IMG/VR virus record: IMGVR_UViG_3300042731_009106
Coordinates: 75,274 to 139,273 of that record
Length of the DNA stretch: 64,000 bases
Source: a virus
Strand: one strand, 5' to 3'
Shown here: positions 10,643-51,637 of the stretch, in pieces
Layout: each line of letters begins with the position of its first letter
Numbering within the stretch: the first letter of the stretch is position 1
The notes under the pieces: model-generated
Database searches by the model: none
What the model saw: only the letters and a program-made list of their open reading frames with translations
What the model was told of the DNA's origin: nothing
Program-made: the position numbers and the translations under genes

Positions 10643-13036
10643 ATGCAAGCCAACTTCACTCCTAGATGTCAAGAAATTTTAGCTTTAGCTAAAAAGCTAG
10701 CCGAAAAGTTCAACAACCCAGAAGTTACCGTTGAGCATGTCTTTCTTTCTTTTTTAAAGATTGACTCTTTTTTATTTCCACGTATAGAGCAAGAGATACA
10801 AATTGATCTTGAAGCTTTAGTTCAGTCCGTCGTCGAATCTCTCGCCAACAAATCCCAAGAAAATATAGAAAAAGTTAGCTTCGGTGAAGATGTAAAGCAA
10901 TGCCTAGACTTAGCCTACCAAACATCTAACTCCAAAAGCCATACTTACATTAGTGTCGAGCACTTGTTTTTTGCATTACTAAATGAGCCAAACTCTAATA
11001 TTATAGATTATTTCATTGCGCATGACATAGATATTTTAAAGGTAGATGATTTCTTACAAGATTACTTAGAGAACAGTCAGTCAAGAGACAATATAACATT
11101 TACTTATAGTAATGAAAATCCTATGTCAGCTTTTGGATCGCAGTCTCAAGGTATAGAGGCTTATAGTGTTGACTTAAATAAGTTAGCTAAAGAAGGTGAA
11201 TTCAACTTTATATCCGCAAACATGGATTATGTCCATGCTTTAGAAGAAACCTTATGCCGTAAAACAAAATCATGCGCCTTACTTATTGGTGATCCGGGTA
11301 TTGGTAAAACTGCCATTGTGGAATACTTGGCAAAAAGAATTACAAGTATGACCACCAATGACTATTTATCTAATAAAAAAATTCTAGCGGTAGACCTTCC
11401 CTCTATGGTTGCTGGAACAAAATATAGAGGTCAATTTGAAGAAAGATTAAAAACTTTTATAGATGCAGTAAAACAAGAAAAAAACATTATTCTTTTTATA
11501 GATGAAATACATACTATAGTTGGTGCTGGTAATTCTGAGGGAGCTTTAGATGCGGCTAACATCCTAAAACCTTATATTGCACGTGGAGAATTAACTTGCA
11601 TCGGGGCAACAACTTATGAAGAATACAAAAAGTCTTTTGCCAAAGACCCTGCTCTTAGACGTAGGTTTAATAATATAAAAATTTCAGAACCTTCAGAAGG
11701 AGAAGCTTTAGTTATCTTAAAAAACTTAGCGCCAAGTTATGAAGCTTTTCATGGTGTCACCTATTCTGAAGATAGCTTAAATCAAGCCATTGTTTTATCT
11801 AAAAAATTTATTATAGATAGAAAGTTGCCTGATAAAGCTATTGATTTATTAGATCAAGCTGGCTCAAAATTAAAGATCAGTCATTTTCAAAAGCCTAAAA
11901 TGGCAAAGCAAATGGAAAAAGTTTTAATTGCTGAAGATGTAGAAACTTCAATAAAAGAGAACGTATTCAAAACATACAAAGAAACTTTAGATAAATGGCA
12001 AAAAAGAAAACTATCTAAAATGCCGACAGTTCAATCAAATCATATTAATGAAATTATATCTGATATGTTTGACATCCCTATTGAATCCCTAAAAGAGACT
12101 AAGTCTCAAAAATTAATACAGCTTGAACCCAGAATTCAAAAAGATGTTATTGGTCAAGATAGAGCCATCTCTAGATTAGTTAACAGTTTATTTAAAACTC
12201 ATGCAGGCCTACAAGATCCTAATAGACCTATTGGTAGTTTTTTGTTTTTAGGTAAAACTGGCACAGGTAAAACTCTTACTTCTAAATCTTTAGCTAAACA
12301 TTATTTCGGTTCAGATAAAAAATTAATTTATTTTGACATGAGTGAGTTTAGTGAATCTACATCTGTTAGTAAATTTTCTGGTTCTTCACCCGGTTACGTT
12401 GGCTACGAAAAAGGCGGCATACTAACCGAGAAAGTTAAAAGAGATCCACATTGTGTTCTACTTTTTGATGAGATTGAAAAAGCTCACCCAATAGTACTAC
12501 AGTCCTTACTTCAAATATTAGAAGAAGGCAGAATGACAGACAATTCTGGAGAAGAAACATCTTTTAAAAATACTATTATTATTTTAACAAGTAATCTTGG
12601 AGCAGAACTAGTAGACAAAAATCCATCTGTAGGATTCATGAGGCAACAAGAGTCTAATTATGACAAGATTTTTGACGAGGCTAAACGTAGATTAAGTCCT
12701 GAACTAGTTAATAGATTTGATGGTATTATATTATTCAATAACTTTAGTGATGAAAGTCTATCTCAAATCATTAATATTGAATTAAATAAAGTTAAAAATA
12801 AATTAAAATCAAAAGGAATTAAAATAACTTTCAAACCGAAAGTTAAGAAACGTATTCTAGATCAAACTATAGCTGAAAAACTTGGTGGCAGACCTATTCG
12901 CAGAATTATTCAAAATGATATTGAAGTTGAGCTTGCTAAATTTATTATAATGAATAACCCAGAAAGTGTAAATATTGATTACATAGACGATCAATTTACC
13001 TGCCATGTACCACGCAAGACATCCAAGAAGACCTAG
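10643..13036 (+). CDS. clpC: ClpA/ClpC-type AAA+ unfoldase
   Basis: Two Clp_N repeats; D1 GDPGIGKT/FIDEIH; D2 GKTGTGKT/FDEIEKAH; pore loops KYRG and GYVG; short middle domain; ClpP-docking-type SVGF tripeptide (about 12629-12637). Confidence 0.88.
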   Translation: MQANFTPRCQEILALAKKLAEKFNNPEVTVEHVFLSFLKIDSFLFPRIEQEIQIDLEALVQSVVESLANKSQENIEKVSFGEDVKQCLDLAYQTSNSKSHTYISVEHLFFALLNEPNSNIIDYFIAHDIDILKVDDFLQDYLENSQSRDNITFTYSNENPMSAFGSQSQGIEAYSVDLNKLAKEGEFNFISANMDYVHALEETLCRKTKSCALLIGDPGIGKTAIVEYLAKRITSMTTNDYLSNKKILAVDLPSMVAGTKYRGQFEERLKTFIDAVKQEKNIILFIDEIHTIVGAGNSEGALDAANILKPYIARGELTCIGATTYEEYKKSFAKDPALRRRFNNIKISEPSEGEALVILKNLAPSYEAFHGVTYSEDSLNQAIVLSKKFIIDRKLPDKAIDLLDQAGSKLKISHFQKPKMAKQMEKVLIAEDVETSIKENVFKTYKETLDKWQKRKLSKMPTVQSNHINEIISDMFDIPIESLKETKSQKLIQLEPRIQKDVIGQDRAISRLVNSLFKTHAGLQDPNRPIGSFLFLGKTGTGKTLTSKSLAKHYFGSDKKLIYFDMSEFSESTSVSKFSGSSPGYVGYEKGGILTEKVKRDPHCVLLFDEIEKAHPIVLQSLLQILEEGRMTDNSGEETSFKNTIIILTSNLGAELVDKNPSVGFMRQQESNYDKIFDEAKRRLSPELVNRFDGIILFNNFSDESLSQIINIELNKVKNKLKSKGIKITFKPKVKKRILDQTIAEKLGGRPIRRIIQNDIEVELAKFIIMNNPESVNIDYIDDQFTCHVPRKTSKKT

Positions 13037-14339
13037 TGTAAAATACGGAAACGAATTTCTGTATTCTAGTTTTGATGCAACAGGTTACCACTTTAATAAT
13101 GAAGTGGCAATAGATAGTGGTTGCGCTCTAAGGAACATCCCTTGGACAGATTGTTCTGGCAACTTAGTTCGGCAAATACATAGAATTCAATCTGCTACAT
13201 ACGGTTTTACTGTCAGCAAAAAAGATGTAAACCAATTTGGTAAAATGGCTAGAGTAGATTCTGTAGCTATTGATACACCTACTGTAACAATGGATTTTGA
13301 ATATTTTCTAGCTGATGGATTCAATGAGCAAGTAATGGGTTTCATTGTTGATGGAGAACATCAAGCTTTATACAACCATATAGCTATGAACAATAGAGTT
13401 GGTTGTAATATTTTTGTTGCAACTATGCCAGAAGGCCATGAAGTTGTCGGCGCGAACCTTAAGAACACATCTCAAGTCAAACAGATTAGATCTTCATATG
13501 AAGGAGCCAAGGATACTGCTAGAGTAGTAGGCATAGGTAATGCCTTCTTAAATCAATATGCAGTAACTGTAGAAGTGGGTAATATCCCAAAGGCTAGAAT
13601 GAGCTTTGACGCATATAATATGCGATCTTATGAAGGTTTTTGCGATCTCCCTATACCAGCAATCAACCCTAAAGCTGCTTGCATTAAAGACAACGTTCAC
13701 TTTAGTTTGCCAGACACTTATGAATCATTTGTATATGAACAATTGGCGGGTCAAGACGAAATTGTATATCAAGATGGAGCTGGAGCATTGAAGCCGGGAA
13801 ATATACGTTTAACTCTAGGTGATGCAGCTATTATGAGCCAATTAGGTAGTGACCTAGCCTCCTTCCACAGAGGGGCGGCACATATACAAGGTTTTACAAT
13901 AAATGTTCCTTTAGGTAATACCCGCTTAAATAGAATAGGTAGTTATTATGAATTTGCTAGATCTATAGATTTTCCAAGTCTCATTGAAGTTGAAGTTCAA
14001 GCCATCATTAGCGAACTCAAAGATGATAGTTCAGTAAAGGAGTTGTTTTATTGTCCAACAGAAAGACATGACCTCGTTCTATTACTTGAAGACTGTCAAG
14101 GTATACAAGAATGCGACTATAGATTGCTTCCAGTTAGTACCAACATGGCTTTTTATATTAAAGGAGCGATGATTCAAGAAGAGTCAATAACTTCTAATAT
14201 TACCGATAATAAAGTAGTGAGCCTTAAATTTACAGCTCCTTTAGGAGGTTTGGACGACAAAGGTAATGGCTTATTTATTTTTGGCAAAAGTTATTTCCCT
14301 GATAAACCTAAAATTCTAGCTTGGGGTCAACCTTTGTAA
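13005..14339 (+). CDS. probable virion structural protein (tail-tube-like?)
   Basis: 444 aa, beta-rich, no enzyme motif; RIQSATYGFTVSKKDVNQFG...PTVTMDFEY resembles large-phage structural proteins as I recall them. Function unverified. Confidence 0.35.
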   Translation: MYHARHPRRPSVKYGNEFLYSSFDATGYHFNNEVAIDSGCALRNIPWTDCSGNLVRQIHRIQSATYGFTVSKKDVNQFGKMARVDSVAIDTPTVTMDFEYFLADGFNEQVMGFIVDGEHQALYNHIAMNNRVGCNIFVATMPEGHEVVGANLKNTSQVKQIRSSYEGAKDTARVVGIGNAFLNQYAVTVEVGNIPKARMSFDAYNMRSYEGFCDLPIPAINPKAACIKDNVHFSLPDTYESFVYEQLAGQDEIVYQDGAGALKPGNIRLTLGDAAIMSQLGSDLASFHRGAAHIQGFTINVPLGNTRLNRIGSYYEFARSIDFPSLIEVEVQAIISELKDDSSVKELFYCPTERHDLVLLLEDCQGIQECDYRLLPVSTNMAFYIKGAMIQEESITSNITDNKVVSLKFTAPLGGLDDKGNGLFIFGKSYFPDKPKILAWGQPL

Positions 14340-14347
14340 TTTTTTTC

Positions 14348-14376
14348 TTTACATCCATTCACTTTTGTTGTAATAT
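14348..14376 (+). promoter_or_regulatory. promoter for the tmRNA precursor
   Basis: TTTACA (14348-53), N17, TAATAT (14371-76); 25 nt upstream of the mature 5' end. Confidence 0.55.
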
Positions 14377-14401
14377 ATATAAGTTCTTTGATAAATTTTA
14401 T

Positions 14402-14765
14402 GGGCGTGTACTGGATTCGATTTAAATTGAATGGGTATACTGCAAGTAGGAGTTGCATCTGGCTCCTAAAAAAGGTGCAAAAATCTACATGGCAATAAGT
14501 CACGTGTTAAAGCTTTCGCCTTCAAAAAGCGCGAGCTTGCTTTAGCAGCATAAGTCTGCTACCTCATAACCTTTGACGCAGATAAAGGGATTATGGGGTC
14601 ATTAATCTGCAAAACAGATAAAAGTTTATCCATATCATAAACTGTAAATAATTGAAATGGTTAGTTGGATGTTTATATCATAACTATAAAAAAAATAAAC
14701 TAAACTTGTAGATGTATATTACGGAAGATTTAAAGACGCGGGTTCAACTCCCGCCACGTCCACCA
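14402..14765 (+). ncRNA. ssrA: tmRNA, one-piece, 364 nt
   Basis: 5' GGGCGTG pairs with 3' CACGTCC-ACCA including the G3:U alanine determinant; GGATTCGA D-loop; T-arm GCGGG-TTCAACT-CCCGC; pk1 (GGAG..CTCC with TGCATCT/AGGTGCA); pk2 (GCAGAT/ATCTGC). Tag ORF 14491-14553 reads GNKSRVKAFAFKKRELALAA*. Confidence 0.97.
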
Positions 14766-14780
14766 TTTTTAAAATAAAAC

Positions 14781-14809
14781 TTGACTATATGCAAAATATA
14801 TGTCATACT
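14781..14809 (+). promoter_or_regulatory. sigma70-type promoter (extended -10), near-leaderless
   Basis: TTGACT, N17, CATACT preceded by TGn; ATG at 14818. Confidence 0.7.
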
Positions 14810-14817
14810 TAACAATT

Positions 14818-15354
14818 ATGAATCTTTTATACAAAACAAAAACCTATCTAGTTGGCCACATGCAATATGTTAGTGGTAGAAATTGGCGTGAAGATGTCAC
14901 TCAAAAGCTAGAACCTTTAAACATTACATGTTTTGATCCATATAAAAAACCATTTATGAAAGACGTAGAGGAAGATGAAGCGTCTCGACAAGAAATGGAA
15001 ACTTGGATGAAAACAAAACAATATGATCGAGTAACTGAGCGCATGAAAACTGTTCGCGCATATGATTTAAATTTAGTTGATCGCTCTGACTTCATCATAG
15101 CTCATCTTGTTCCTGATGTAGCATCTTGGGGTAGTGCAGAAGAAATTGTTACAGCCGTACGTGAAAAGAAACCTGTGTTTGTTAGCATGGAAGGCGGAAA
15201 AGCTAAAACTCCTCTATGGATGCTTGGCATGTTTCCTCATAAATATATTTATAATTCTCTTGACGAAATTATTGAGATGTTGTATGCTATAGATAGTGGC
15301 GACAAACCAATAGATTCTGATCGCTGGAGATTGTTACAAAAAAAATTCAGATAA
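14818..15354 (+). CDS. nucleoside 2-deoxyribosyltransferase / nucleotide N-glycosidase-like protein
   Basis: TYLVG...WR...FDPY...DLNLVDRSDFIIAH...WGSAEE pattern. Start moved from 14800 to 14818 because 14800 lies inside the promoter. Confidence 0.7.
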   Translation: MNLLYKTKTYLVGHMQYVSGRNWREDVTQKLEPLNITCFDPYKKPFMKDVEEDEASRQEMETWMKTKQYDRVTERMKTVRAYDLNLVDRSDFIIAHLVPDVASWGSAEEIVTAVREKKPVFVSMEGGKAKTPLWMLGMFPHKYIYNSLDEIIEMLYAIDSGDKPIDSDRWRLLQKKFR

Positions 15355-15455
15355 ACTAGAAAAACTAAAATTAAAAATTATTATGATTACATTTACATTA
15401 TATTCAATCGGAGCATTCTGCGTATACTTATATTTAGGAACTAAACAAAAATAAA

Positions 15456-15749
15456 ATGACAACTCAATCTAATATTCCACCTCACATATCTGGTTTATTT
15501 TACCAACTTCTTGGAGAACGTAATACCAAAGTCGCAGACTTTAAGCTTTTAACCTTAAAAGGTTGTGATGATGTCATGTCAACTTCAATTCGACTAAAGG
15601 AAACCTTGCAAGACATTGCAAACATAGAAATTCAATTAGAAGCTTTGGTGGAATTCTATCCAGATCTTAATGAAAAAGGGGATCAATCAACTCCAAGCTC
15701 AGTAAATCCGGATGACAATCCAATTGGAGCTGACTCACAAATGCTTTAA
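15456..15749 (+). CDS. hypothetical protein
   Basis: 97-aa ORF in the operon direction. Confidence 0.55.
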   Translation: MTTQSNIPPHISGLFYQLLGERNTKVADFKLLTLKGCDDVMSTSIRLKETLQDIANIEIQLEALVEFYPDLNEKGDQSTPSSVNPDDNPIGADSQML

Positions 15750-16037
15750 TTTATTAATTAAATCTCCGTAATTATATTCGTTTATATATTGAAAACCAAT
15801 TCTCTTTTTTGGTCCAACACTGACTCCTTCTTGCCTTTCTCCCTCTAGGATTAATTCTTGAACAAAGTCGTGAGCGCCATAATTTTTAATCCACTGCCAA
15901 TATAAACTACGAGTTCCCTGTTTACATCTTATTATATTTTCTGCTTCAAGAAAAACTTGAGCATACAAAGTTACATCTCTAAAACAATGTACTGAGCTAG
16001 GTGGTTCAGTCAACACCGAATCATAAATTATAACCAT
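15735..16037 (-). CDS. hypothetical protein
   Basis: 100-aa ORF with a minus-strand GTGTA motif (16047-51) 9 nt upstream of its ATG. Confidence 0.65.
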   Translation of the reverse strand: MVIIYDSVLTEPPSSVHCFRDVTLYAQVFLEAENIIRCKQGTRSLYWQWIKNYGAHDFVQELILEGERQEGVSVGPKKRIGFQYINEYNYGDLINKLKHL

Positions 16038-16054
16038 AAATTATTATACACATT

Positions 16055-16333
16055 ATGTTAGAAGACAATCAAAAAGAAAAAGTTAACTCTTGGAAAGAAC
16101 GTGAATTAGGAGCCTTCTGGACTCAGGATAGCAAAAAAGGTAAGTATTTATCTGGCTCGGTTGACTTGGCCAAGCTTACAGGTGATGGCAAAATGCGCGT
16201 GGTCATGTTTCCAAATAGCAACAAAGAAAATGACAATCAGCCTGACTATATTTTATATGTTTCAAAGGATGCTCAGCCTCAAGCTAGCAATGGTGAAACA
16301 AAAAAAGCAGAAATTCCAGAAACTTTAGTGTAA
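16055..16333 (+). CDS. DUF736-like small protein
   Basis: ELGAFW...GKYLSG...NKENDNQPDY pattern. Confidence 0.55.
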   Translation: MLEDNQKEKVNSWKERELGAFWTQDSKKGKYLSGSVDLAKLTGDGKMRVVMFPNSNKENDNQPDYILYVSKDAQPQASNGETKKAEIPETLV

Positions 16334-16345
16334 TTTAATGCACAA

Positions 16346-17458
16346 ATGAATGTTCAATACGGATTAATTAGTACCTCAGAACTCCTTAAAGAGAGGGATC
16401 CAGATAGTTCTTATACCTTTTCAGGTATAACTGTCAGAAATTTTAACGCCGCCAAAGAAAGCTCAGGAATCGAAGGAGCTTTATCTGAACTCTCTAATCG
16501 TATTCATCATAATTTGCGATTAACCGAAAATATCATTGAGTTCTTACCGAAAGTTAAAATCACTCATTACCGTATTAGTAATTCTTTGTTCAGTATACTT
16601 TCAGATTTCTCGGATGGTGTTGCTGTTACAATTCAGGATCTCCCTGACTCTCAAGAAATTATTGCTAAAATACGAGAAATAGGATTTCTTGCTAGACAAA
16701 ACAATATCACATTATCTGTCTATCCAGATTCAACTACTAGTTTGACAAGCACTGACGAGCAAGCTATCGACAGAGCTGTTAAAGAACTTAATTTTCATAG
16801 CTGGTTTCTTGATACTGCTGGATTTCCCTCAAATCCATCTAGCCCAATTATCATAAAGCCTTTTGCGCAACCTAGCTCTAGTAGTCATGAAGCAGCAGTT
16901 GAGTTTGTAAAAAGTTTTTACGAAAGCTATAAAAAACTTGATAGAGAAACTCAAAGTAGAATAGTAATACAGAATGAAGATGAAGGTTTTTGGAATGCGA
17001 TTAATTTATTTAAATATTTTCATGTTTATTTAAACGAAAAATTCAAAGAAGGCATGGTATTAAGTTACCACAACTATGCCGATCAAATGAATCCGGGCAT
17101 GTTGGGTTCTGATGCCGTTTCGATTGATGTTAATGTTGGAGCTTTTCATGAAACTTGGAAAGGTGTTGTGCCGATTTTCTTATGGTCAGAAAAAGATCGT
17201 GGGAATCCACAAGTTTCATCAGAATATCTATCTGAACCAATTCCAGATTTTAATTATCAAATTAAATGGGAATGCGATGTGAGAAAAAGGGATAAGGCTA
17301 TTGTTAAATTTACAATGCCTGAGGACGAAGATAAAGTTACTGAAGAAGTCATAATGACTATAACTAAAAATAAATACAAAAGGTCTAGCGACGCATCAAA
17401 AGCCTTTAATGCACTATATGACAAATCCTCCAATGCCCAATCGCCAAACCAAATATAA
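16346..17458 (+). CDS. UvsE/UVDE-fold paralogue with substituted metal ligands (predicted pseudonuclease)
   Basis: Colinear with the ORF at 53111 (HYRIS, YPD, QNEDEGF, LWSE, WECDV..DKAI) but the catalytic His/Glu/Asp positions are replaced. Confidence 0.8.
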   Translation: MNVQYGLISTSELLKERDPDSSYTFSGITVRNFNAAKESSGIEGALSELSNRIHHNLRLTENIIEFLPKVKITHYRISNSLFSILSDFSDGVAVTIQDLPDSQEIIAKIREIGFLARQNNITLSVYPDSTTSLTSTDEQAIDRAVKELNFHSWFLDTAGFPSNPSSPIIIKPFAQPSSSSHEAAVEFVKSFYESYKKLDRETQSRIVIQNEDEGFWNAINLFKYFHVYLNEKFKEGMVLSYHNYADQMNPGMLGSDAVSIDVNVGAFHETWKGVVPIFLWSEKDRGNPQVSSEYLSEPIPDFNYQIKWECDVRKRDKAIVKFTMPEDEDKVTEEVIMTITKNKYKRSSDASKAFNALYDKSSNAQSPNQI

Positions 17459-17912
17459 AACTCTATTTTCAGAATTAGCTGAATCCAAAGGTTACAAGAT
17501 TCTTGAGCCTAGTTTTTCTGAAAAGAAGGCTAATATAGATTTAAAACTCGAAGGTCATATTGGTGGCAAAAAAACAATTGTTTCCATCGACATTAAAAAA
17601 AGTAACCAACACTCAAATCAATGGGTCTACATAGAATTTGACAATTCCAAAGGCGGTAAAGGATGGATTTATGGAAAATGTCAATTTGTTGTTTTTGAAA
17701 CAAAGAAAAGCTTTATTTTTGTTCCACGAAAAAAACTTCTCACTTGGTTAACTTCCTCTCAAACTATTCGTTTTGACTTGCCTTATGTTGATAAGCCTTG
17801 GAATTCTAAATATAGATTATTTCGCAGAAAAAATACACTTGAAACTATCACGCAAATTAAAGTAAGTGACTTACTAAGCATCGAGGGTCATCAAGTATGG
17901 CAGAAGCTTTAA
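17409..17912 (+). CDS. PD-(D/E)XK nuclease-like protein (probable start 17433)
   Basis: IDLK...SIDIKK...WVYIEF...GWIYG pattern. Confidence 0.55.
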   Translation: MHYMTNPPMPNRQTKYKTLFSELAESKGYKILEPSFSEKKANIDLKLEGHIGGKKTIVSIDIKKSNQHSNQWVYIEFDNSKGGKGWIYGKCQFVVFETKKSFIFVPRKKLLTWLTSSQTIRFDLPYVDKPWNSKYRLFRRKNTLETITQIKVSDLLSIEGHQVWQKL

Positions 17913-18051
17913 AAATAATATTTGAAAATTTTTGGACTTTTTCTGGTACTCTAGTTATAATATTAGTAATTGGACATTCATTAGCTTTACCTTTTTATTG
18001 GTACTATAAAATTAAACAAAATAAATTAAATAAATCTATCTGGAATCATCA

Positions 18052-18201
18052 ATGAAACCTAATAATTCTTGCAGTAAAGGCAAATGCCCAGCTCCAAAAA
18101 TTCAAAACAAACATCGCAATGGAAAAGGTGACAAGCCTCGCCCATTCGAAAAAAAACAGTATGATAAAAACTATGAATCAATTAATTGGAAAAAAAGATA
18201 A
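18052..18201 (+). CDS. small basic phage protein (49 aa; not in the ORF track)
   Basis: Translated by hand: MKPNNSCSKGKCPAPKIQNKHRNGKGDKPRPFEKKQYDKNYESINWKKR*. It overlaps the 5' part of ORF 18119..18379, whose true start is probably further downstream. Confidence 0.5.
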   Translation: MKPNNSCSKGKCPAPKIQNKHRNGKGDKPRPFEKKQYDKNYESINWKKR

Positions 18202-18409
18202 GCAAACATTTTATGTAGTCACTCGCAACGGTCGTAGAGCTTGGCCTAAAGACTACTGGACTATTCAAGAAGCTCAAAATCATGCCCAAAAACTTATTCA
18301 AAGTTTAAAAAATTATAAAGATCCAGATTACAAAAAAGTAGTAATCATGGAAACAGAAGATCCAGAATCTATTACTTAATACTTGACAATATAATTTCTA
18401 TATAGTATA

Positions 18410-18838
18410 ATGGCTTCACAATCTAAATTAGATGAAGCTTATCTTAAAATCTGTAATACATGGTCTCAACTTTCCCATGCTAGACGTAAGAAAGTTGGAT
18501 GTATAATAGTAAAAGATGGAGCAATTATATCTGATGGATACAATGGCACACCGAAAGGGTTTGACAATGATTGTGAAATAACATATAATGGAAAACTTAA
18601 AACAAAAGATGAAGTCTTACATGCTGAAAGTAATGCTATTACAAAACTCGCCAAGTCTACGCAGACTAGCATTGGGGCGACAATGTATATTACAATTTCA
18701 CCTTGTGTAGAATGCTCAAAACTAATTATTCAATCAGGAATATCTAGAGTGGTATACAAAGACTTTTATCGTGACGATAGAGGAATCCAATTATTAAAAC
18801 AAGCTAATATAGAAGTACAAAAATATGAATACAGATAA
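18410..18838 (+). CDS. dCMP deaminase
   Basis: KVGC...GYNG, HAESNAI, SPCVECSK zinc motifs. Confidence 0.92.
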   Translation: MASQSKLDEAYLKICNTWSQLSHARRKKVGCIIVKDGAIISDGYNGTPKGFDNDCEITYNGKLKTKDEVLHAESNAITKLAKSTQTSIGATMYITISPCVECSKLIIQSGISRVVYKDFYRDDRGIQLLKQANIEVQKYEYR

Positions 18839-19284: not shown

Positions 19285-19287
19285 ATT

Positions 19288-23407: not shown

Positions 23408-23410
23408 TTG

Positions 23411-43011: not shown

Positions 43012-43017
43012 TCTATT

Positions 43018-44059: not shown

Positions 44060-44392
44060 TTAGTCCCAGTTGCCTTTAGCAACATTTCTGCCGTCTAAAT
44101 TGCTCCAATCAACCGCAAATGGATCCTCATCCTCAATTTGCTCAATTTGCTCGCTTTTTACCGCTTGCATTTGGTTATCGTATAATTTACTATGCATTCT
44201 TTGTCCCATCCATAAAGATTCGAGTAATAACGCTCTCACGGCTTCAAGATTGTAACTCTCTTCTTTACTGCAACGATATGCTAGTTTTAAAACATTGCAT
44301 AAGGTTCTCTTCTCATCAAATGGAGCTTTCATTTCTTGCTTCATTTGTTCAGCGATGTCCTTTGTAAAAGGTTTTGGTTTATATTCGCTCAT
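44060..44392 (-). CDS. hypothetical protein
   Basis: 110 aa; GTGTA motif 9 nt upstream. Confidence 0.65.
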   Translation of the reverse strand: MSEYKPKPFTKDIAEQMKQEMKAPFDEKRTLCNVLKLAYRCSKEESYNLEAVRALLLESLWMGQRMHSKLYDNQMQAVKSEQIEQIEDEDPFAVDWSNLDGRNVAKGNWD

Positions 44393-44406
44393 ATAGATGT
44401 ATACAC

Positions 44407-44967
44407 TTAACCAAAAGGATATCCTTCTTCTAAATATTGATTGTATTGCTCTTCGGAATAATAATTCCAGCCTGTTTTAGCGCAAATTTCACGAACAAGT
44501 TCTAGAAAATAGTAAACTTTTGGATGGTTTATTTGTTGCATTGTAATTTTAGAACCATGTTTTTGGATAATTTTATGAGCGGGAATATCTATATTGTATT
44601 TTTCTGCCCTTTCTATCATTCCATTTAGGTGTTTTTGCTCTGGGTCATCAGGGTTATAAAACATAGAGCTAATTGATATTAATTTTGCATTTTTTGCATG
44701 TATTTTTATTTTTTCTAAGTTATAATTCTCAGAAGATTCGGATTGAAGATGTTGAAAAATGAGATGATCCGAAGATTGTAATCTGTTAGTGGCTTCTTGT
44801 ATATCAGTAATTACATTAATTGGTTTACCTTCAAACATTGAGTCTGGACCCCAATTTGACACGAACGATTCTATGGATATCCACTTTACATCAAAGTTTT
44901 GATCTAGTTGCTCAATATACCAACTTAAAGCTTTTGTTTGGCAATTGCCTAATAGAGTAATTCTCAT
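44407..44967 (-). CDS. WcbI-like polysaccharide biosynthesis protein
   Basis: ITLLGNCQTKAL; paralogue of 50237..50830 (both end ..YY/F.EEQY....YPFG). Confidence 0.55.
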   Translation of the reverse strand: MRITLLGNCQTKALSWYIEQLDQNFDVKWISIESFVSNWGPDSMFEGKPINVITDIQEATNRLQSSDHLIFQHLQSESSENYNLEKIKIHAKNAKLISISSMFYNPDDPEQKHLNGMIERAEKYNIDIPAHKIIQKHGSKITMQQINHPKVYYFLELVREICAKTGWNYYSEEQYNQYLEEGYPFG

Positions 44968-44976
44968 ATTAATATA

Positions 44977-45016
44977 TACACTTTGTCTTGACTTTTGTTT
45001 GTATTTATGAGATTAT
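44977..45016. promoter_or_regulatory. back-to-back promoters: minus-strand GTGTA class and plus-strand sigma70 class
   Basis: TACAC 44977-81; TTGACT 44988, N17, GATTAT 45011-16 with predicted +1 at ATG 45023. Confidence 0.65.
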
Positions 45017-45022
45017 ATAATC

Positions 45023-45196
45023 ATGAACACTAGTTTTATTACTTTAACAGATCTTTGGCATAATGGAAAATATGTCGAAGTTGGAGATATTATTAGAGCT
45101 GAACAATGGAACGCTGGTAAAGTTGCAGAATTCTGCTTATACTTTGTGAAATATGTAGGCTTAAAAGAATTTGAGGTTTTATATAAGTTTTTATGA
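45023..45196 (+). CDS. 57-aa hypothetical protein (not in the ORF track)
   Basis: MNTSFITLTDLWHNGKYVEVGDIIRAEQWNAGKVAEFCLYFVKYVGLKEFEVLYKFL*; leaderless promoter upstream, ATGA-coupled to 45193. Confidence 0.65.
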   Translation: MNTSFITLTDLWHNGKYVEVGDIIRAEQWNAGKVAEFCLYFVKYVGLKEFEVLYKFL

Positions 45197-45564
45197 ATGA
45201 TCAATATTTACTCGATTGGGAAACTTTTGAATTTTATACTCAAGAACTCCATAAGCAAGAGGAGTATAACATAAATCTCATGCGAACAATTCAAACTTTT
45301 ATAGAAAATAATCCTTCTCCTAAGCGCTACCAACGAAAACGCTTATTATCTAGAGCTGATCAATGCTATACAACATTAAGTCATTTATATAAAAAGCAAA
45401 TTGACTCGGTTGATTCATTAATTGAGCATCATAAAGATGACTCTACTGTTCCTGATGAATTTAAAATTGAGCCACATACTTTGTATGCTTTACGCAATTT
45501 AACATTTACTCTCATTGAGCAAATCAAAAAAGAAAACAAACAAATCAAAAAACTACTATCTTAA
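45193..45564 (+). CDS. hypothetical protein
   Basis: 123 aa, helical. Confidence 0.6.
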   Translation: MNDQYLLDWETFEFYTQELHKQEEYNINLMRTIQTFIENNPSPKRYQRKRLLSRADQCYTTLSHLYKKQIDSVDSLIEHHKDDSTVPDEFKIEPHTLYALRNLTFTLIEQIKKENKQIKKLLS

Positions 45565-45566
45565 TT

Positions 45567-45818
45567 ATGCCATATATACCATCATCAGAAAAAAACAAAG
45601 TTGATCAAGATAATTTAATTCAAAATGCAGGTCAATTTAATTATGCATTAAATCAAGTTATCTCGATTTACATTGAACAAAATGAATTGAATTATCAAAC
45701 TTGCAACGATATCATAGGAGCAATGGAATGCGCCAAAATGGAATTATATCGTAGATTGGTTGCTCCTTATGAAGATAAAAAAATATTACAAAACGGAGAC
45801 GTAAAGCCTTACAAATAA
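45567..45818 (+). CDS. conserved phage protein (DUF6899-like)
   Basis: MPYI..GQFNYA..NDIIGAMECAKMELYRRLVAPYEDKKI..NGDV. Confidence 0.7.
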   Translation: MPYIPSSEKNKVDQDNLIQNAGQFNYALNQVISIYIEQNELNYQTCNDIIGAMECAKMELYRRLVAPYEDKKILQNGDVKPYK

Positions 45819-45841
45819 AAAAGCCCCCAATTTCGAGGGCT
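45817..45841 (-). terminator. intrinsic terminator between convergent genes
   Basis: On the minus strand AGCCCTC-GAAATT-GGGGGCT followed by TTTTT. Confidence 0.65.
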
Positions 45842-45866
45842 AGTTTATTTTAGCAAGGTATGGTTA

Positions 45867-46238
45867 CTAGCAATTCATTGTAACTTCGCCATTATCGTCA
45901 TCCCAACTTCCATTAAGAAACTTTTCAGCAGTTTTGTATTCATCTGAATCTGAGTTTAAGCTATCTTTGTAATCTTGTATTTGACCTCTAATCCCGGCAG
46001 AATAAGGAGTTGGGCCTAAGTTATCAAAACAAGACCCTTTATCTAACTTTTCTACAGGAACAATTAGCGGGCAATTTGGGTCATTTAAAAAGTTTTCTAA
46101 ATGTCTATGAAATGCATTAGCTGCATTAAAACCTTCAGCTTCTAAAGCTGCTCTGGTTGCACTACTAATTTGAGGCGGACATGAGGCAAAATCGTCCTTA
46201 TACCTTTCACGTTGAGCATTGTTTTGTATCGTTGTCAT
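45867..46238 (-). CDS. hypothetical protein
   Basis: 123 aa; GTGTA motif 9 nt upstream. Confidence 0.65.
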   Translation of the reverse strand: MTTIQNNAQRERYKDDFASCPPQISSATRAALEAEGFNAANAFHRHLENFLNDPNCPLIVPVEKLDKGSCFDNLGPTPYSAGIRGQIQDYKDSLNSDSDEYKTAEKFLNGSWDDDNGEVTMNC

Positions 46239-46281
46239 ATTTATTTATACACAAGTTTATTATATTGTGTAATTCATCTTC

Positions 46282-46476
46282 ATGAATGAAAAACAATTAC
46301 AACTTGCATTAATTAAAAAAGATAGGCAAATTTCCGACTTATATGCATTAATTGACACCCTGCAAACCAACTTGAGAACGGCTACCAGCTATTTGTCTGA
46401 AAAAGATAAATCTGAAGTAGTTAATGTTCAAAGTTATAAATGGTGCATGAATTGGCGTCAAGGTGACGAAATTTAG
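46282..46476 (+). CDS. small hypothetical protein
   Basis: 64 aa; GTGTA motif 10 nt upstream. Confidence 0.6.
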   Translation: MNEKQLQLALIKKDRQISDLYALIDTLQTNLRTATSYLSEKDKSEVVNVQSYKWCMNWRQGDEI

Positions 46477-46478
46477 TC

Positions 46479-46507
46479 TTGAATAATTCATTTTTTTAAG
46501 TTATAAT
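46479..46507 (+). promoter_or_regulatory. sigma70-type promoter, near-leaderless
   Basis: TTGAAT, N17, TATAAT (46502-07); ATG 46515. Confidence 0.7.
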
Positions 46508-46514
46508 ATAGGTT

Positions 46515-47060
46515 ATGTACAATTACCTAATTGACCATAATAAAGAGTTCATTTATTACGTCACCCCAAAATGCGCTTCAAGGACATTTTTTGACATCCT
46601 TAATTTTAAAGGTGGTGAAGAAAGACCTCTTAGCCTCAAACATGAAGAGTATTTTTCTTGGACTTTTGTGCGCAATCCTTATGCTAGAGTTGTATCTGCA
46701 TATCAAAATAAAGTTGTCGATAAATTTCAAAGTGGTTTAGATGAATTTAGGCACTTAACTTCTTTTGAAGATTTTGTTCAAGCGATAAGTAAAATTGATA
46801 TAAATAAAGCTGATCGACACATTCGACCAATGAACACTTTTTTTCCAGAGTCCATTAGTTATGTAGGTAAACTAGAAAACTTAAATTCTGACTTTGATTT
46901 TATTTGTGATAAAATTAATCTACCAAAAGTAAACTTACCTCATTTAAATAAAAGTTTAAGCAAAGACTACACAGAGTATTACAATACAGAAACTCAATCA
47001 ATAGTCAACAAAATATATAGCAAAGATTTAGATATTTTTAAATATTCTTACGGAGATTAG
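46515..47060 (+). CDS. sulfotransferase family 2
   Basis: VTPKCASRT; VRNPYARVVSAY; DRHIRP; VGKLENL. Confidence 0.85.
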   Translation: MYNYLIDHNKEFIYYVTPKCASRTFFDILNFKGGEERPLSLKHEEYFSWTFVRNPYARVVSAYQNKVVDKFQSGLDEFRHLTSFEDFVQAISKIDINKADRHIRPMNTFFPESISYVGKLENLNSDFDFICDKINLPKVNLPHLNKSLSKDYTEYYNTETQSIVNKIYSKDLDIFKYSYGD

Positions 47061-47065
47061 ATTTT

Positions 47066-47821
47066 ATGGGTAAAGGTATCTCAATAGCTTTCATTACTTC
47101 AGTATTTGGATACAATGGCAATGACCCTAAAAAATTTGAAAAAATTAAAGGGGCTCAATATTTTTTATTTACAGATAGGCCTGAATCTAGCTTCGATACT
47201 GATTGGGAAATCATTAATGTTGCAGGTATCCTAGATATTGCTAATTTAGATTGCAATGTAAAAAAATCTAGATATTGCAAATTTATGGGCTGGAGTGTGC
47301 TAGAGGCAATGGGTGGCGTTTTTGATTATGTTTATTATTGCGATGTTCATTTAAGCCCAAATCATCATTTAAATTGGCCAGAGCTTTCCAAATACATATC
47401 TCATCATGATTTTCCCTTTACTCAAGATGTCCATATTGATCCCGAAATAAGAAAAAAAGGAATCAAACAAGAACTTAAAGCAATAATCAAACATGAACGA
47501 GATACTGTAGAGCAAGTTGACAAAACAACACGATATCTTGAAAAATGGTTTCCAGATGTAGACTTAGATTCTCCTAAGTTTTTTCAAAATACTGTTTTTG
47601 GCTACGAATATCAATCCAAATTAGTAAGGCTTATTTTTGCAACATTTTGGGGACATTACTCAAGAAATGACATTACCTTCAGAGATCAACCATTATGGAA
47701 TGCTATTTTAAAGAAATATAAACTAATACCCTTTCACAAAGTCAAACTCCTAAATCGTTTTTTTGTTAAAACAGGCCTTTATGGTAAACATGGCTTAAGA
47801 GGTTTTGACGATGAAGATTAG
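47066..47821 (+). CDS. DUF616/TOD1-MUCI70-like glycosyltransferase
   Basis: TSVFG, YFLFTD, SRYCK, YCD, RDQPLWN. Confidence 0.6.
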   Translation: MGKGISIAFITSVFGYNGNDPKKFEKIKGAQYFLFTDRPESSFDTDWEIINVAGILDIANLDCNVKKSRYCKFMGWSVLEAMGGVFDYVYYCDVHLSPNHHLNWPELSKYISHHDFPFTQDVHIDPEIRKKGIKQELKAIIKHERDTVEQVDKTTRYLEKWFPDVDLDSPKFFQNTVFGYEYQSKLVRLIFATFWGHYSRNDITFRDQPLWNAILKKYKLIPFHKVKLLNRFFVKTGLYGKHGLRGFDDED

Positions 47822-47840
47822 TAATTTAACATAAAAAGTA

Positions 47841-48746
47841 ATGTACATAATATTAGGAAAAAACGGATATATAGCAGAAGCTATAACAAAAGAATTAAAG
47901 TCACGCGATTTACCTCATATCGCGCTTAGTCGCACAGATGTAGATTATACAAATATGAAAATTTTTGATAATTGGCTATCAAATACTGTATACAAAAAAA
48001 CAGTGAAACATCATAATGTTTCTATCATTAATTGCGCGGGATATATCGGTAAACCAAATGTGGATGCTTGCGAGCTAAATAAAGCAGATACAGTTGAAGG
48101 TAATGTAATATTCCCTGCAATGCTTTCGCAACTTTGTGCAAATAAAGGATATTTATATACTCATATTTCTTCGGGATGTATTTATGGCGGGTATGAAAAA
48201 GATTTCACAGAAGAAGATGCGCCTAATTTTGACTTTCAAAATGGTAGTTTTTATAGTGGGACAAAAGCTCTTGCAGAAAAAATTGTAAAACAAAATGTAC
48301 CAAAGAGTTATATTTTTAGATTACGCATACCATTTGATGAATTTGAGTCTCCACGTAATTACTTGACTAAATTATTATCTTATGACATGCTTCTAGATGC
48401 GCGTAACTCTCTTTCTCATCGTGCAGATTTCGCAAAATACACAATTGACTTAATCGAGAAAAAAGTTCCATTTGGGATTTACAATGTGACAAATAAAGGT
48501 AGTGTTACTACCAAAGAAGTTGTAGAACTCATGAAATGCCATTTGCGCGACAACTTAGCTTTCAAAATGCCAGATAAAGAGTTTAAATTCTTCAGTAAGT
48601 TAGATAATTTCATGCAAGAGGTTACTGCTCCTCGCTCGAATTGTGTTCTTGACACATCAAAAATTGAAAAATATATTCCCATCAGAACTGCACAAGATGC
48701 ACTCAAAGATGCTCTATCTAAATATGTAATTCAAAAAGATTTATGA
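47841..48746 (+). CDS. NDP-4-keto-6-deoxyglucose reductase (RmlD-like, UER1/NRS-ER type)
   Basis: ILGKNGYIA, INCAGYIGKPNVDACE, SSGCIY, FYSGTK (YxxxK), RLRIPF. Confidence 0.85.
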   Translation: MYIILGKNGYIAEAITKELKSRDLPHIALSRTDVDYTNMKIFDNWLSNTVYKKTVKHHNVSIINCAGYIGKPNVDACELNKADTVEGNVIFPAMLSQLCANKGYLYTHISSGCIYGGYEKDFTEEDAPNFDFQNGSFYSGTKALAEKIVKQNVPKSYIFRLRIPFDEFESPRNYLTKLLSYDMLLDARNSLSHRADFAKYTIDLIEKKVPFGIYNVTNKGSVTTKEVVELMKCHLRDNLAFKMPDKEFKFFSKLDNFMQEVTAPRSNCVLDTSKIEKYIPIRTAQDALKDALSKYVIQKDL

Positions 48747-49528
48747 ATCCTTTGGATTTGCATAATCAAAATACAGGTAAAACTATCAACGAGCGGATAC
48801 AATGGTCTATGGCTCATGCTAGACTACCTTTAAAAAAGTACTGCACAGATAAAATCAAATGCAAGCAATATATTAAAGATAAATTAGGAGAAGGTTTTAC
48901 GGCTAAACTTTTAGCTTCTGCAGATAATGTTGATACTCTTCGGTCAATTATATCAAAATCCGAAAATCATCCTAATAATTTTATATTAAAAGCCAATAAT
49001 GATTCAGGCGGAACTACTTTCATTAAAGATAAAAAAATCTCAAAAGATCAACAATCATTAATTGAGAAATATAAAAATAACATATATGAGGGGTTTTTTC
49101 AAGGTGAGTGGTTTTATTCAGGCATAGAATATAAATGTTTTTCTGAAGAATTATTGGGTAATAATTTAACTGACTACAAATTTCATTGCGCTGGAGGTTC
49201 ACCAAGGTTTGCAAATATTGTCAAAGATAGAAATATTAACTCTATAAATCACATTCATGTTGATATGGAAGGTCAAGCTTTAAACTTTGAATTAGAATCT
49301 TCAATCCCACTTTCCAAAACATTTATAAAGCCATCTAACTGGGAGTTAATGAAATTAGTTGCCAAGGTATTATGTCAAGATTTTGATTACGTTAGGGTTG
49401 ATTTATTTAATACAGATTTACATGATTGTTCTGACAAATCAATTTTTGTATCCGAATTAACCTTTGCTCCAATGAGAGGACATCATTGCGGTTCTGGTCA
49501 AACAGAGGCTGGCAGATTAATTTCTTGA
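48743..49528 (+). CDS. TupA-like ATP-grasp amide ligase
   Basis: TDKIKCKQYI, FILKANNDSG, DYKFHC, DYVRVDLF, SELTFAP. Confidence 0.85.
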   Translation: MNPLDLHNQNTGKTINERIQWSMAHARLPLKKYCTDKIKCKQYIKDKLGEGFTAKLLASADNVDTLRSIISKSENHPNNFILKANNDSGGTTFIKDKKISKDQQSLIEKYKNNIYEGFFQGEWFYSGIEYKCFSEELLGNNLTDYKFHCAGGSPRFANIVKDRNINSINHIHVDMEGQALNFELESSIPLSKTFIKPSNWELMKLVAKVLCQDFDYVRVDLFNTDLHDCSDKSIFVSELTFAPMRGHHCGSGQTEAGRLIS

Positions 49529-49671
49529 TGTGCAATATATATATTTTTTGCGAAGGAGGCTTGGGTAACAGAATTAATACCCTAATTAATGGCTTATTTT
49601 TATCTACAGAACTTAATAGAAAACTTATTTTAATTTGGCCTCAAACTAATTGCAAAACTTTTAAAGTGTAA
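49528..49671 (+). pseudogene. 47-aa N-terminal remnant of a fucosyltransferase-like gene
   Basis: CEGGLGNRINTLINGL..LNRKLILIW, then a TAA lying inside the downstream GTGTAA promoter motif. Confidence 0.5.
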
Positions 49672-49679
49672 TATAATGC

Positions 49680-50219
49680 GTGGAACTTTGCAATAATACA
49701 CCAGCAATCAAATGTTTTTTAAGGAGAGAATTCGTCTCCAACTCTGAAGATATACCCGATCATTTAAATTGTGTAATTTTCGGCGTTCATACAATCAAAA
49801 ATCAAGCTATGACATTTGTAGCTATGATTGAAAATGGCGCAGTATATACCAAGCTACCCTTACATGCCTTTTGTTGGCTCAAGGAAGCTCCACAAAGAGA
49901 TTTGTCATTCTTAATGACTTATGACTCATTTAGCTACTCAAACAGCGTTATTGAATACGATTATCTCAAATATATGAATTGTAAGTTTTTTGATGAAAAT
50001 AAAGAATTTCATCATGGTCAATATATGTTTACCCTAGAGCCTTATGGTTCAGATCGTGCAGAAGACCCAAAGTTTTATAAACCATTTCATTTTATAAAAT
50101 TAAACGAGGGCAATTTTGCCGCACAACCAACAAATAAGATCATATGGGATGACCATATAGTAAATGATAGTGTAAAATTTATACCTAAACCCAACACGGA
50201 AATATATAACGTAGAATAG
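49680..50219 (+). CDS. conserved phage hypothetical protein
   Basis: CVIFGV..ENGAVY.KLP..AF, GQYMFT, GNFAAQPTNKIIW; GTGTA motif 9 nt upstream of the GTG. Confidence 0.65.
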   Translation: MELCNNTPAIKCFLRREFVSNSEDIPDHLNCVIFGVHTIKNQAMTFVAMIENGAVYTKLPLHAFCWLKEAPQRDLSFLMTYDSFSYSNSVIEYDYLKYMNCKFFDENKEFHHGQYMFTLEPYGSDRAEDPKFYKPFHFIKLNEGNFAAQPTNKIIWDDHIVNDSVKFIPKPNTEIYNVE

Positions 50220-50236
50220 AAACTTACAAATATTAA

Positions 50237-50830
50237 ATGAAAATTGCAACAATAGGCAGTTGTCAAGCAATGGCGCTAAATTGGTATGTACATAGATTGC
50301 TGCCAGATTCTGAATGTAAATGGGTATCACCTGAATTATTTCAATTTTGGGGAAATAAGCCCCAATACACTTCAACAAAAAGTATGTGGCAATCTCAAGC
50401 AAATCATAATATTTTTAATACGGATGAAGGTATTGATTATATAAAATCAGCAGATTATATTGTTTATCAAAAAATAAAACCTTCAACATCTGCTTCATTC
50501 AACTATGAGAAAATTGAATCCTATACAAAACCTTCAGCTCAAGTAGTATCGTTAACATATATTCATTACGATAAAAGTGCAAGTGATCCACTACAAGGAA
50601 TGGTCGAACGAGAAGAACTTCTTTCACCTGATATTAGAATCAGTAAATTAATTTCAGAACACCCTGATCGTGAAAATTTTAAATTTAATGCGAAAGGCAC
50701 ACATTGCAATTCAGTTGTATTTCTTGAGATATTGAGGGAAATATGTGAAAATTTTAATTGGGCTTTTTTCAACGACGAGCAATATATTAAAATTCAGGAA
50801 AAATATTACCCTTTTGGGGAAAACCTATGA
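50237..50830 (+). CDS. WcbI-like protein, paralogue of 44407..44967
   Basis: IATIGSCQAMALNWY; ADYIVYQ; YYPFG. Confidence 0.55.
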   Translation: MKIATIGSCQAMALNWYVHRLLPDSECKWVSPELFQFWGNKPQYTSTKSMWQSQANHNIFNTDEGIDYIKSADYIVYQKIKPSTSASFNYEKIESYTKPSAQVVSLTYIHYDKSASDPLQGMVEREELLSPDIRISKLISEHPDRENFKFNAKGTHCNSVVFLEILREICENFNWAFFNDEQYIKIQEKYYPFGENL

Positions 50831-50842
50831 CCAACACAAATC

Positions 50843-51637
50843 ATGCAAATATTCTACGACCACGTTATTTCTAAACAAGCTGACACAGACTTTAATTATA
50901 CTCTTATTTCTGCTTGGGTTGATAGTGGTGAAGAGGATGAAGCTCTAGCTACGGGTTGGTTGCCTACATATTTCTATACCGATGATTGTGAATTTGCGAA
51001 AGAGAGTGAGTCAAATAAGCGTCAAATTTGGTGTCAATTAAGAAGCACAAGAATCGAGTGTGAAAAGTTTCGTGCAAAAAGTAAACATTTAAAAGCATTA
51101 AAATTGCAAAACTTTAAGTATCAAATAATAAAACAAAAAGACATTTATGGAGATTTGAATGTCTTATCTACCCTTTACCAAATATACAACAAATATGTAA
51201 CTTACAAAAATTACAAAGACATACTAGATAAAGATGGTTTTATTAAACATATAATTGATGATAGTAGTCATTTTATTTTATTTATGATTGACGATAGAAT
51301 TGTAGCTTGTACCGCAATGCAACAATTTGGCAATAGTTTTGTTTCGGGCTTGTTTTTTTGGGATTACGCAAATAAAGAGCTATCATTAGGCAATTTATCT
51401 AATCATCTTGAAGTTGAACTTTCAAGAGAGTATGGTTTCAAATACCTATATATCGGTGTGTATAGCGAGATACCTTCCCAATACAAATCTTACATCAAAG
51501 GAGTACAGGTTTGGACAGGAAGAAAATGGATGTCAAATAAACGACAATTAATAAATATTGCACAGAATGATTCAAATAGTAATACATTAGAAGATTTTGT
51601 AGATTATAATAAATTTCAAAAACTATTAGAATTTTAA
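50843..51637 (+). CDS. ATE/Bpt-like aminoacyl-tRNA-protein transferase
   Basis: GW..STRI N-terminal part; YNKY; FFWDY..LSLGNLS..EVELSREYGFKYLYIG..YK (ATE_C signature). Confidence 0.75.
   Translation: MQIFYDHVISKQADTDFNYTLISAWVDSGEEDEALATGWLPTYFYTDDCEFAKESESNKRQIWCQLRSTRIECEKFRAKSKHLKALKLQNFKYQIIKQKDIYGDLNVLSTLYQIYNKYVTYKNYKDILDKDGFIKHIIDDSSHFILFMIDDRIVACTAMQQFGNSFVSGLFFWDYANKELSLGNLSNHLEVELSREYGFKYLYIGVYSEIPSQYKSYIKGVQVWTGRKWMSNKRQLINIAQNDSNSNTLEDFVDYNKFQKLLEF

Follow-up and report, generated by a model that had tools for sequence, protein, structure and literature searches.

A tmRNA, a ClpC-type unfoldase and an ATE-like protein in an uncultured marine phage lineage are probably separately evolving modules

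Transfer-messenger RNAs (tmRNAs) and Clp ATPases of phages have both been annotated before. tmRNAs occur in ∼2.3% of phage genomes, and they have been hypothesized either to keep hijacked ribosomes running or to tag proteins for degradation (PMC9004378). Lytic-type phages that carry a complete ssrA gene and no smpB include the OM43 phage Melnitz and the pelagimyophages (PMC9004378), as well as the Bacillus megaphage G, which has ClpX and ClpP in addition to its tmRNA (PMC12484599). Phage SPO1 also intervenes in host Clp-dependent proteolysis; its Gp53 is reported to be a small adaptor-like protein given to the host ClpC (PMC6873191). We have analysed the final 64 kb (the window, whose positions are used below) of IMG/VR record IMGVR_UViG_3300042731_009106, an uncultured marine phage of 139,273 bp with a CheckV completeness of 98%, hereafter G000. 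On its + strand the window carries a gene for a ClpC-type class-I Hsp100 unfoldase (10643–13036), a one-piece tmRNA (14402–14765) and a gene for a protein resembling the ATE/Bpt aminoacyl-tRNA-dependent transferases (50843–51637). A sequence-only reading of this DNA had proposed that the three make up a phage-encoded protein-tagging and proteolysis set. Our analyses indicated instead that they are probably three separately evolving auxiliary modules and not a single three-part system.

The tmRNA and the ClpC of G000 belong to known kinds. Unlike the phage tmRNAs described above, the G000 tmRNA belongs to a lineage in which this RNA is fixed, its tags are of basic or acidic character and 20 to ∼40 residues long, no glutamine riboswitch match was found alongside it, and the Clp protein accompanying it is of the ClpC type without a phage ClpP. 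Whereas SPO1 supplies a small adaptor-like protein to the host ClpC, G000 supplies an entire unfoldase. The most original item of this locus is the phage-only clade of ATE-like proteins together with its partner protein.

We defined the lineage with the gene of a DnaE-type DNA polymerase III alpha subunit (8042–10624, + strand; Pfam DNA_pol3_alpha, 204 bits, with finger and HHH_6 domains). At least 588 IMG/VR viral contigs are related to G000 through DnaE. We searched 40 relatives of this lineage (labelled G001 onward; 41 records counting G000), ten of which are at least 90% complete and make up, together with G000, a set of 11 near-complete genomes. A ClpC homolog was found in 40 of the 40 relatives (34–66% identity), and so in all 41 records. 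A tmRNA scoring above the Rfam cut-off was present in 25 of the 40 relatives, including all ten near-complete ones, and thus in 11/11 near-complete genomes with G000. The ATE-like gene was found in only 10 of the 41 records and in 4/11 near-complete genomes. The sequence-only reading had named independent and patchy distributions as grounds for its own rejection, and on these grounds the three-gene set fails. Protein identities are also discordant. Between G000 and G001 the ATE-like proteins are 79% identical, compared to 63% for DnaE and 41% for ClpC, and the partner protein described below, encoded two places upstream of the ATE-like gene, reaches 99% (93.5% for the DNA). These values, far above those of ClpC and DnaE, point to a horizontal exchange of the ATE-like block.

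Many phages without a tmRNA or ClpC gene also carry the ATE-like gene. When 1.84 billion cluster representatives were searched with a profile, only 180 ATE-like clusters were returned at E ≤ 0.001. In a degenerate-pattern scan, the family was recovered from at least 516 viral contigs, and from only seven contigs, all derived from metagenome-assembled genomes, among 185,579 species genomes. When three divergent ATE-like sequences were used as tblastn queries, no match appeared among 50,697 records of deposited phages. Among 17 longer ATE-bearing contigs from other lineages, three have a tmRNA match above the cut-off (one of only 70 nt) and two have a Clp protein made of the N-domain and D1 only; none has both a tmRNA and a Clp protein. 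In ∼80 loci from other lineages, no tmRNA lies within ∼5 kb of the ATE-like gene. In the DnaE lineage the ATE-like gene is sporadic, and its family is phage-only.

The tmRNA was detected with Infernal over the complete span of the Rfam model RF00023 (positions 1–374), scoring 133.4 bits where the gathering score is 47 (E = 5e-52). On reading the sequence, we observed a 7-bp acceptor stem (GGGCGUG/CACGUCC) containing the G3:U70 pair, an encoded 3′ CCA and a T-arm. The tag reading frame (14491–14553, + strand) has 20 codons followed by TAA and encodes the peptide GNKSRVKAFAFKKRELALAA, of which the terminal residues are LALAA. The intact tmRNA with an ALAA-ending tag recognized in the sequence-only reading is thus borne out, and the tag sequence is exactly the one given there. 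ARAGORN did not detect the G000 tmRNA, either in the whole sequence or in the isolated segment; it does detect the tmRNAs of the relatives at loci L002, L085, L086 and L090. Phage tmRNAs may therefore be undercounted in surveys that use no other detector.

In an alignment of 21 lineage tmRNAs, compensatory double changes were seen at 37 of the 61 predicted pairs. Acceptor pairs 4, 5 and 6 and the T-stem are among the places showing compensatory changes, and G3:U70 is present in all 21 sequences. The tag frame is likewise open in 21/21 copies and ends in LALAA, AMAA, LEMAA or LEMVA. The tag bodies diverge and the hydrophobic end stays. Tags of 20 to ∼40 residues are unusually long, and they fall into a basic class with the pattern GNK(S/N)R..., to which G000 belongs, and a strongly acidic, longer class (G001, G006 and G036) of 33 to ∼40 residues ending in LEMVA or LEMAA. 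Covariation, the invariant G3:U70 pair and the open frames with diverging bodies argue that the tmRNA is functional and that its coding part is under selection. Among the tmRNA loci of the relatives G001–G037 (L094–L113), the tag of G032 starts with ANNIVRF. This start presumably resembles those of cyanobacterial tags, a possible lead to the host.

The unfoldase has 797 residues and the layout of a complete class-I protein, namely an N-domain, D1, a shortened middle region, D2 and D2-small (Pfam Clp_N, AAA, AAA_lid_9, AAA_2 and ClpB_D2-small). Its best solved relatives are the ClpC proteins of Bacillus subtilis and Staphylococcus aureus (3j3s and 6em8). The closest of them, 3j3s, gave a single unbroken alignment over residues 3–793 (E = 4e-170), whereas ClpB and Hsp104 align in two pieces only. 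Both sets of Walker A and B motifs and the pore-loop motifs KYRG and GYVGY were seen in the alignment to 3j3s. The two bacterial proteins are thus alike the phage protein in having the N-domain, two AAA+ rings and pore loops, and they align with it end to end. The phage protein differs from them in being only ∼36–38% identical, in an M region shorter by ∼16 residues, in being phage-encoded straight after DnaE, and in that no MecA/McsB-type adaptor was recognized nearby. None of the NCBIfam equivalog cut-offs was reached (ClpA, 657.7 against 993; ClpB, 684.3 against 1232; TssH, 603.6 against 885). The protein matched phrog_4871, an "ATP-dependent protease", at 734 bits. We classify the phage unfoldase, from these profile scores and alignments, as a divergent ClpC-type protein and not as an ortholog of a named one. 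The ClpA/C-type ATPase that had been read upstream of the tmRNA was confirmed, the end of clpC lying 1.37 kb before the tmRNA. A megablast search of 10643–14800 against deposited phages gave no match.

An (I/L/V)-G-(F/L) loop in D2, by which unfoldases dock on ClpP, is absent from ClpB. In the phage ClpC, a VGF tripeptide (residues 663–665; codons at 12629–12637, + strand) occupies the same column as the VGF of B. subtilis ClpC, and [IVML]GF is found in 71 of 73 lineage ClpC homologs. No ClpP, SmpB (PF01668) or ClpS (PF02617) family member was detected in all 139,273 bp of G000, in searches that were positive in most control genomes; the absence noted earlier for the window alone thus extends to the whole record. 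SmpB was not found in any of the 40 relatives, and 2 of the 40 have a ClpP-family match. These two ORFs (open reading frames) of the CLP_protease family (G032:C1:162921-163409, located 5 kb upstream of ClpC, and G030:C1:63578-64045; 92–97 bits) may be either true ClpP or prohead proteases. Since the phage encodes no ClpP, ClpS or SmpB, any activity of the G000 genes would rely on host parts, and the tmRNA in particular would have to use the host SmpB, as none was detected in G000 or its 40 relatives. The conservation of the docking motif without a phage ClpP suggests that docking on the host ClpP is the selected function of the loop. The use of host ClpP by the unfoldase, as supposed in the sequence-only reading, is hence a fair proposal.

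The third protein (264 residues) matched PF04377 (ATE_C) at 38.6 bits against a cut-off of 25, in agreement with the ATE_C-like protein noticed earlier at 50843. Its best score with the NCBIfam Bpt and arginyltransferase models was 32.4 bits against cut-offs of 170–358, and there was no Pfam match to ATE_N. By hhalign, it aligned to Bpt-like proteins over 197 columns with a probability of 99.8% (E = 1e-29). We predicted its structure with AlphaFold (AF2; predicted local distance difference test score, pLDDT, of 74), and the top Foldseek matches of the model were human and yeast ATE1, the MprF C-domain, the L/F-transferase, FemX and Sba18, with E values from 1e-5 to 4e-7. As this predicted fold matches enzymes that use aminoacyl-tRNA, aminoacyl-tRNA is the likely donor. 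The likeness to FemX, the MprF C-domain, Aat (the L/F-transferase) and Sba18 lies in the predicted fold, whereas sequence similarity is detectable only to ATE/Bpt. FemX has a tandem repeat and MprF a membrane domain, whereas the phage protein is single-domain and has neither.

We mapped functional residues in klAte1 numbering from the 7wfx alignment, taking their roles from PMC9351520. The protein shares ∼200 homologous columns with Bpt and ATE1, including the GNAT-like ATE_C core, the Tyr-Lys pair, a basic helix following the "R..RI" strand and a Ser/Ser/Glu pocket. The catalytic pair is Tyr214-Lys215, of which Lys215 aligns with the catalytic lysine of ATE1 (Lys304 of klAte1, Lys305 of FemX) and is kept in 31/31 members of the ATE-like family. 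The aminoacyl pocket (Ser168, Ser186, Glu190 and Leu202) is Ate1-like at three of its four positions, and Glu190 is kept in 25/31 members. In Ate1 the equivalent residue binds the arginyl moiety, and its mutation in klAte1 abolishes or nearly abolishes arginylation (PMC9351520). The enzyme is therefore likely to have kept the transfer of an amino acid, possibly a basic one, from aminoacyl-tRNA.

The acceptor side is different. In klAte1, Arg80, the first arginine of the GFRRSG motif, provides the basic pocket for the acidic N-terminal residue, and the R80E protein is inactive (PMC9351520). This motif reads GWLPT in the phage protein, with Leu40 in place of Arg80; the position is hydrophobic across the family, and its commonest six residues (L/I/T/C/A/M) include no basic one. 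Similarly, the C4 zinc finger (Cys23, 26, 95 and 96 of klAte1; C...CxxCxxC in Bpt) has no counterpart. The Cys-bearing segment is deleted, appearing as a gap in the profile alignment; none of the 31 members contains a CxxC, and just two of them share Cys64 and Cys73. In addition, the family differs from Bpt and ATE1 in its N-terminal 27 residues and in a family-specific WTGR.W tail, besides being phage-only. Since both the zinc-finger cysteines and the Arg80 equivalent are missing, the protein is predicted not to be a Bpt/ATE1-type writer on Asp/Glu N-termini. The Bpt-like N-degron writer of the sequence-only reading is thus not upheld.

The only recurrent neighbour of the ATE-like gene encodes a 179-residue protein (phrog_3704; 49680–50219, + strand, in G000), which is adjacent in 69 of 93 loci. 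In 52 loci it lies directly upstream on the same strand, mostly with an overlap of 1 or 4 nt. With the ATE-like sequences clustered at 70% identity, this association is seen in 14 of the 28 clusters; with clustering at 50%, it is seen in 7 of 19. The partner family is very conserved (mean column identity of 63% among 24 members). Its AF2 model (pLDDT 78) consists of two small SH3/Tudor-like barrels; Foldseek returned nothing at E ≤ 0.001, and fold matches to Tudor/chromo/SH3-like barrels (VIA) reached Z 6–6.7, a level that shows no more than a common arrangement. From this model, the partner might be a binding module. The family is labelled "PurM" or "ferredoxin" in the records of cyanophages, pelagiphage HTVC008M and Flavobacterium phages. 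Both labels look wrong, as none of the 24 members has a Pfam match and the predicted fold is one of two barrels. No ATE-like gene is present beside the partner homologs of HTVC008M, Flavobacterium phage immuto and S-TIM5.

From these gene identities, motifs, distributions and neighbourhoods, we infer the following use of host factors, ClpP docking, donor and acceptor. The tmRNA would probably be charged by the host alanyl-tRNA synthetase and delivered with the host SmpB, as the phage encodes none. It would free ribosomes stalled in infection and add a LALAA-ending peptide, which may serve as a degron for host proteases of the ClpXP/ClpAP type. The ClpC is inherited with the replication module, right after DnaE, and most likely caps the host ClpP, the docking loop being kept though the phage has no ClpP; proteolysis could thereby be redirected or boosted early in infection. 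The ATE-like enzyme most likely puts an amino acid, perhaps a basic one, on an amine; acidic N-termini of proteins would not be the acceptor, and its two-barrel partner probably helps this transfer.

The three-part alternative, in which C-degrons come from the tmRNA and N-degrons from the ATE-like enzyme, with ClpC on host ClpP as the reader of both, has in its favour that all three genes are present in one genome, that they lie within 14 kb of each other in G001 and that the ATE-like protein is homologous to Bpt and ATE1. The patchiness of the ATE-like gene and its discordance with ClpC, its spread among phages without the other two genes, the lack of a ClpS partner in G000, the missing Arg80 equivalent and zinc finger, and the recurrence of a different protein as its only partner make this alternative very improbable. 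What stands of the proposed set is a tmRNA and a ClpP-docking unfoldase that rely on host partners; the transferase as third member does not. A narrower proposal leaves the ATE-like gene out as unrelated and holds that the tmRNA writes lineage-specific tags and that, once bound to host ClpP, the phage ClpC serves as the dedicated reader of these tags. The two genes are together in 11/11 near-complete genomes. In G000, G002–G005 and G037, and only there, they lie on the same strand with a gap of ∼1.3 kb that holds a single ORF. The conserved docking motif in phages devoid of ClpP fits this proposal, as do the long tags, their basic/acidic split and their constant hydrophobic end, as one would predict were the tag body important to a reader evolving alongside it; mycobacterial ClpC1 degrades ssrA-tagged substrates in vitro. 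However, co-presence inside one lineage amounts to a single evolutionary event, and in other subclades the two genes are from 3.5 kb to ∼100 kb apart, sometimes on opposite strands. It is beside DnaE that the position of ClpC is fixed, clpC being directly downstream of dnaE in the relatives whose coordinates were compared. Outside the lineage, a ClpA/C-type gene occurs without any tmRNA above the cut-off in five phage records (XaC1, an Asteriusvirus, an Alcyoneusvirus fragment, a 735-kb phage and a faecal phage), G055, a complete 158-kb phage, has a tmRNA and no ClpC, and tmRNAs are found in phage genomes at the frequency given above. A LALAA end can also be read by ordinary host ClpX or ClpA, and the ssrA tags of B. 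subtilis are handled by ClpX rather than ClpC. This two-part channel is possible but doubtful on balance. The same tentative weight is given to a functional pairing of the tmRNA with ClpC, and it is unlikely that the phage ClpC preferentially reads the long basic or acidic LALAA-type tags along a degradation route separate from host ClpX/ClpA.

It could also be argued that in G000 the ATE-like enzyme tailors a glycan, much as FemX acts on cell-wall precursors. The amino acid carried by aminoacyl-tRNA would then be attached to an amino sugar or uronic acid within a sulfated glycan made by the neighbouring genes. The stop of its gene abuts the start of a gene for a sulfotransferase family 2 protein (51638–52231, + strand; PF03567, 65 bits), and upstream, in a same-strand run (+), there are genes assigned through Pfam to a second sulfotransferase (46515–47060), an RmlD-like reductase (47841–48746) and a TupA-like ATP-grasp protein (48743–49528). 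The pairing with a sulfotransferase recurs in G001, beside two methyltransferases, and the fold relatives MprF, FemX and Sba18 use non-protein acceptors. However, the remaining 91 ATE loci lack this pairing, so that the context is confined to 2 of 93 loci and to one clade; the genes beside the ATE-like gene in other loci are those of the two-barrel partner, AdoMetDC, ribonucleotide reductase, Hsp20/Cpn10, DnaE or tRNAs. A conserved family is expected to keep a single kind of acceptor, and the nearest sequence relatives all act on protein N-termini. We therefore regard glycan tailoring as quite improbable. Some observations do weigh against our reading of three separately evolving modules. Many relatives are fragmentary, and the absence of a gene outside the 11 near-complete genomes is weak evidence. 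The universality of tmRNA and ClpC in the lineage, with their close same-strand spacing in the G000 subclade, fits a functional pair. Two independent clades, G001 and G016/G022/G034, have the ATE-like gene no farther than 2 kb from the tmRNA; we took the proximity of this gene to tRNAs and tmRNA as location in an accessory-gene island, though a link to aminoacyl-tRNA supply is conceivable. Finally, neighbours of the Hsp20/Cpn10 or Clp N+D1 kind occur in single other lineages, and a role of the ATE-like protein in proteostasis is conceivable too. Taken with these points, separate evolution of the three modules is still the reading that we consider probable.

With both a tmRNA and a ClpC in every near-complete genome examined of a lineage of at least 588 contigs, a ClpP-docking loop kept in the absence of a phage ClpP, and tags of two charge classes, the role of a phage tmRNA becomes directly testable. 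If the two do form a private channel, there would be a phage degradation route apart from host ClpX/ClpA. The ATE-like clade, which spans at least 516 contigs and is not represented in culture, has an intact catalytic core and an acceptor site unlike that of every characterised ATE or Bpt, and if it acts on proteins, it would introduce a new specificity of post-translational aminoacylation in infection. Two over-readings are also corrected here: the "kit" of three genes, and the naming of the partner family as "PurM/ferredoxin" in records of cyanophages and pelagiphages.

Among the remaining genes around clpC and the tmRNA, a 444-residue ORF (13005–14339, + strand) overlaps the end of clpC by 32 nt. 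It had no Pfam, NCBIfam or PHROG match, and it belongs to a phage family that is present in several paralogous copies. Members of this family are found between ClpC and the tmRNA only in G002–G005 and G037, besides G000; elsewhere, two to four clustered paralogs are located far from ClpC. Its neighbours in the atlas are viral hypothetical proteins, some with tail-tube families at a low share. A function of this ORF as a Clp adaptor or SmpB substitute was considered and rejected, as it has no family match and is a multi-copy paralog sited elsewhere in relatives. Directly after the tmRNA, there is a nucleoside 2-deoxyribosyltransferase-like gene (14800–15354; PF15891, 33 bits), of which a 72% identical copy is present in G001.

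In the run of genes leading to the ATE-like gene, the ORF at 47066–47821 (+ strand) was not assigned to a family in the Pfam scan. A 197-residue ORF (50237–50830, + strand), located between the partner and the ATE-like gene, had no Pfam, NCBIfam or PHROG match; its place is taken in G001 by a 225-residue ORF and a Methyltransf_24 protein. Scans for sigma-70 promoters and terminators gave counts no higher than those from shuffled sequence. At this shuffle level, sites were predicted ahead of the tmRNA (14348–14376) and of the partner gene (49650–49677).

Other surroundings of the ATE-like gene were observed in other phages. In a distant clade of the DnaE lineage, it forms a cassette with an AdoMetDC-like (S-adenosylmethionine decarboxylase family) gene upstream (PF02675, 43–48 bits) and a phrog_10325 gene downstream, with overlapping stops and starts (L086:7882-9441, L087:7304-8918 and L088:6687-8268). 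The cassette of G031 lies just downstream of tRNA-Leu, tRNA-Arg and tRNA-Thr. The AdoMetDC neighbour hints at an amine or polyamine-related acceptor for the ATE-like enzyme; no AdoMetDC gene was found in G000. In another phage lineage, DnaE is followed by a Clp protein of 464–510 residues having the N-domain and D1 only, 1.4–3 kb from the ATE-like gene (L124:963-2357 and L127:50-3576). These proteins are without D2, and hence without the ClpP loop. One abundant group of contigs has the order partner, ATE-like gene, Hsp20, a small ORF and Cpn10 (GroES; L187:5839-6261 and L180:6027-6359), which may be a coincidence. We did not build a proteostasis theme on the Hsp20, Cpn10 and Clp(N+D1) neighbours, since none of them occurs in more than two of the 28 clusters formed at 70% identity. 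Farther downstream in the window, a weak Macro-domain match was seen at 55320–55820 (PF01661, 20.9 bits, below the cut-off of 22), and a UV endonuclease of the UvdE family is encoded at 53105–54112 (PF03851, 111 bits).

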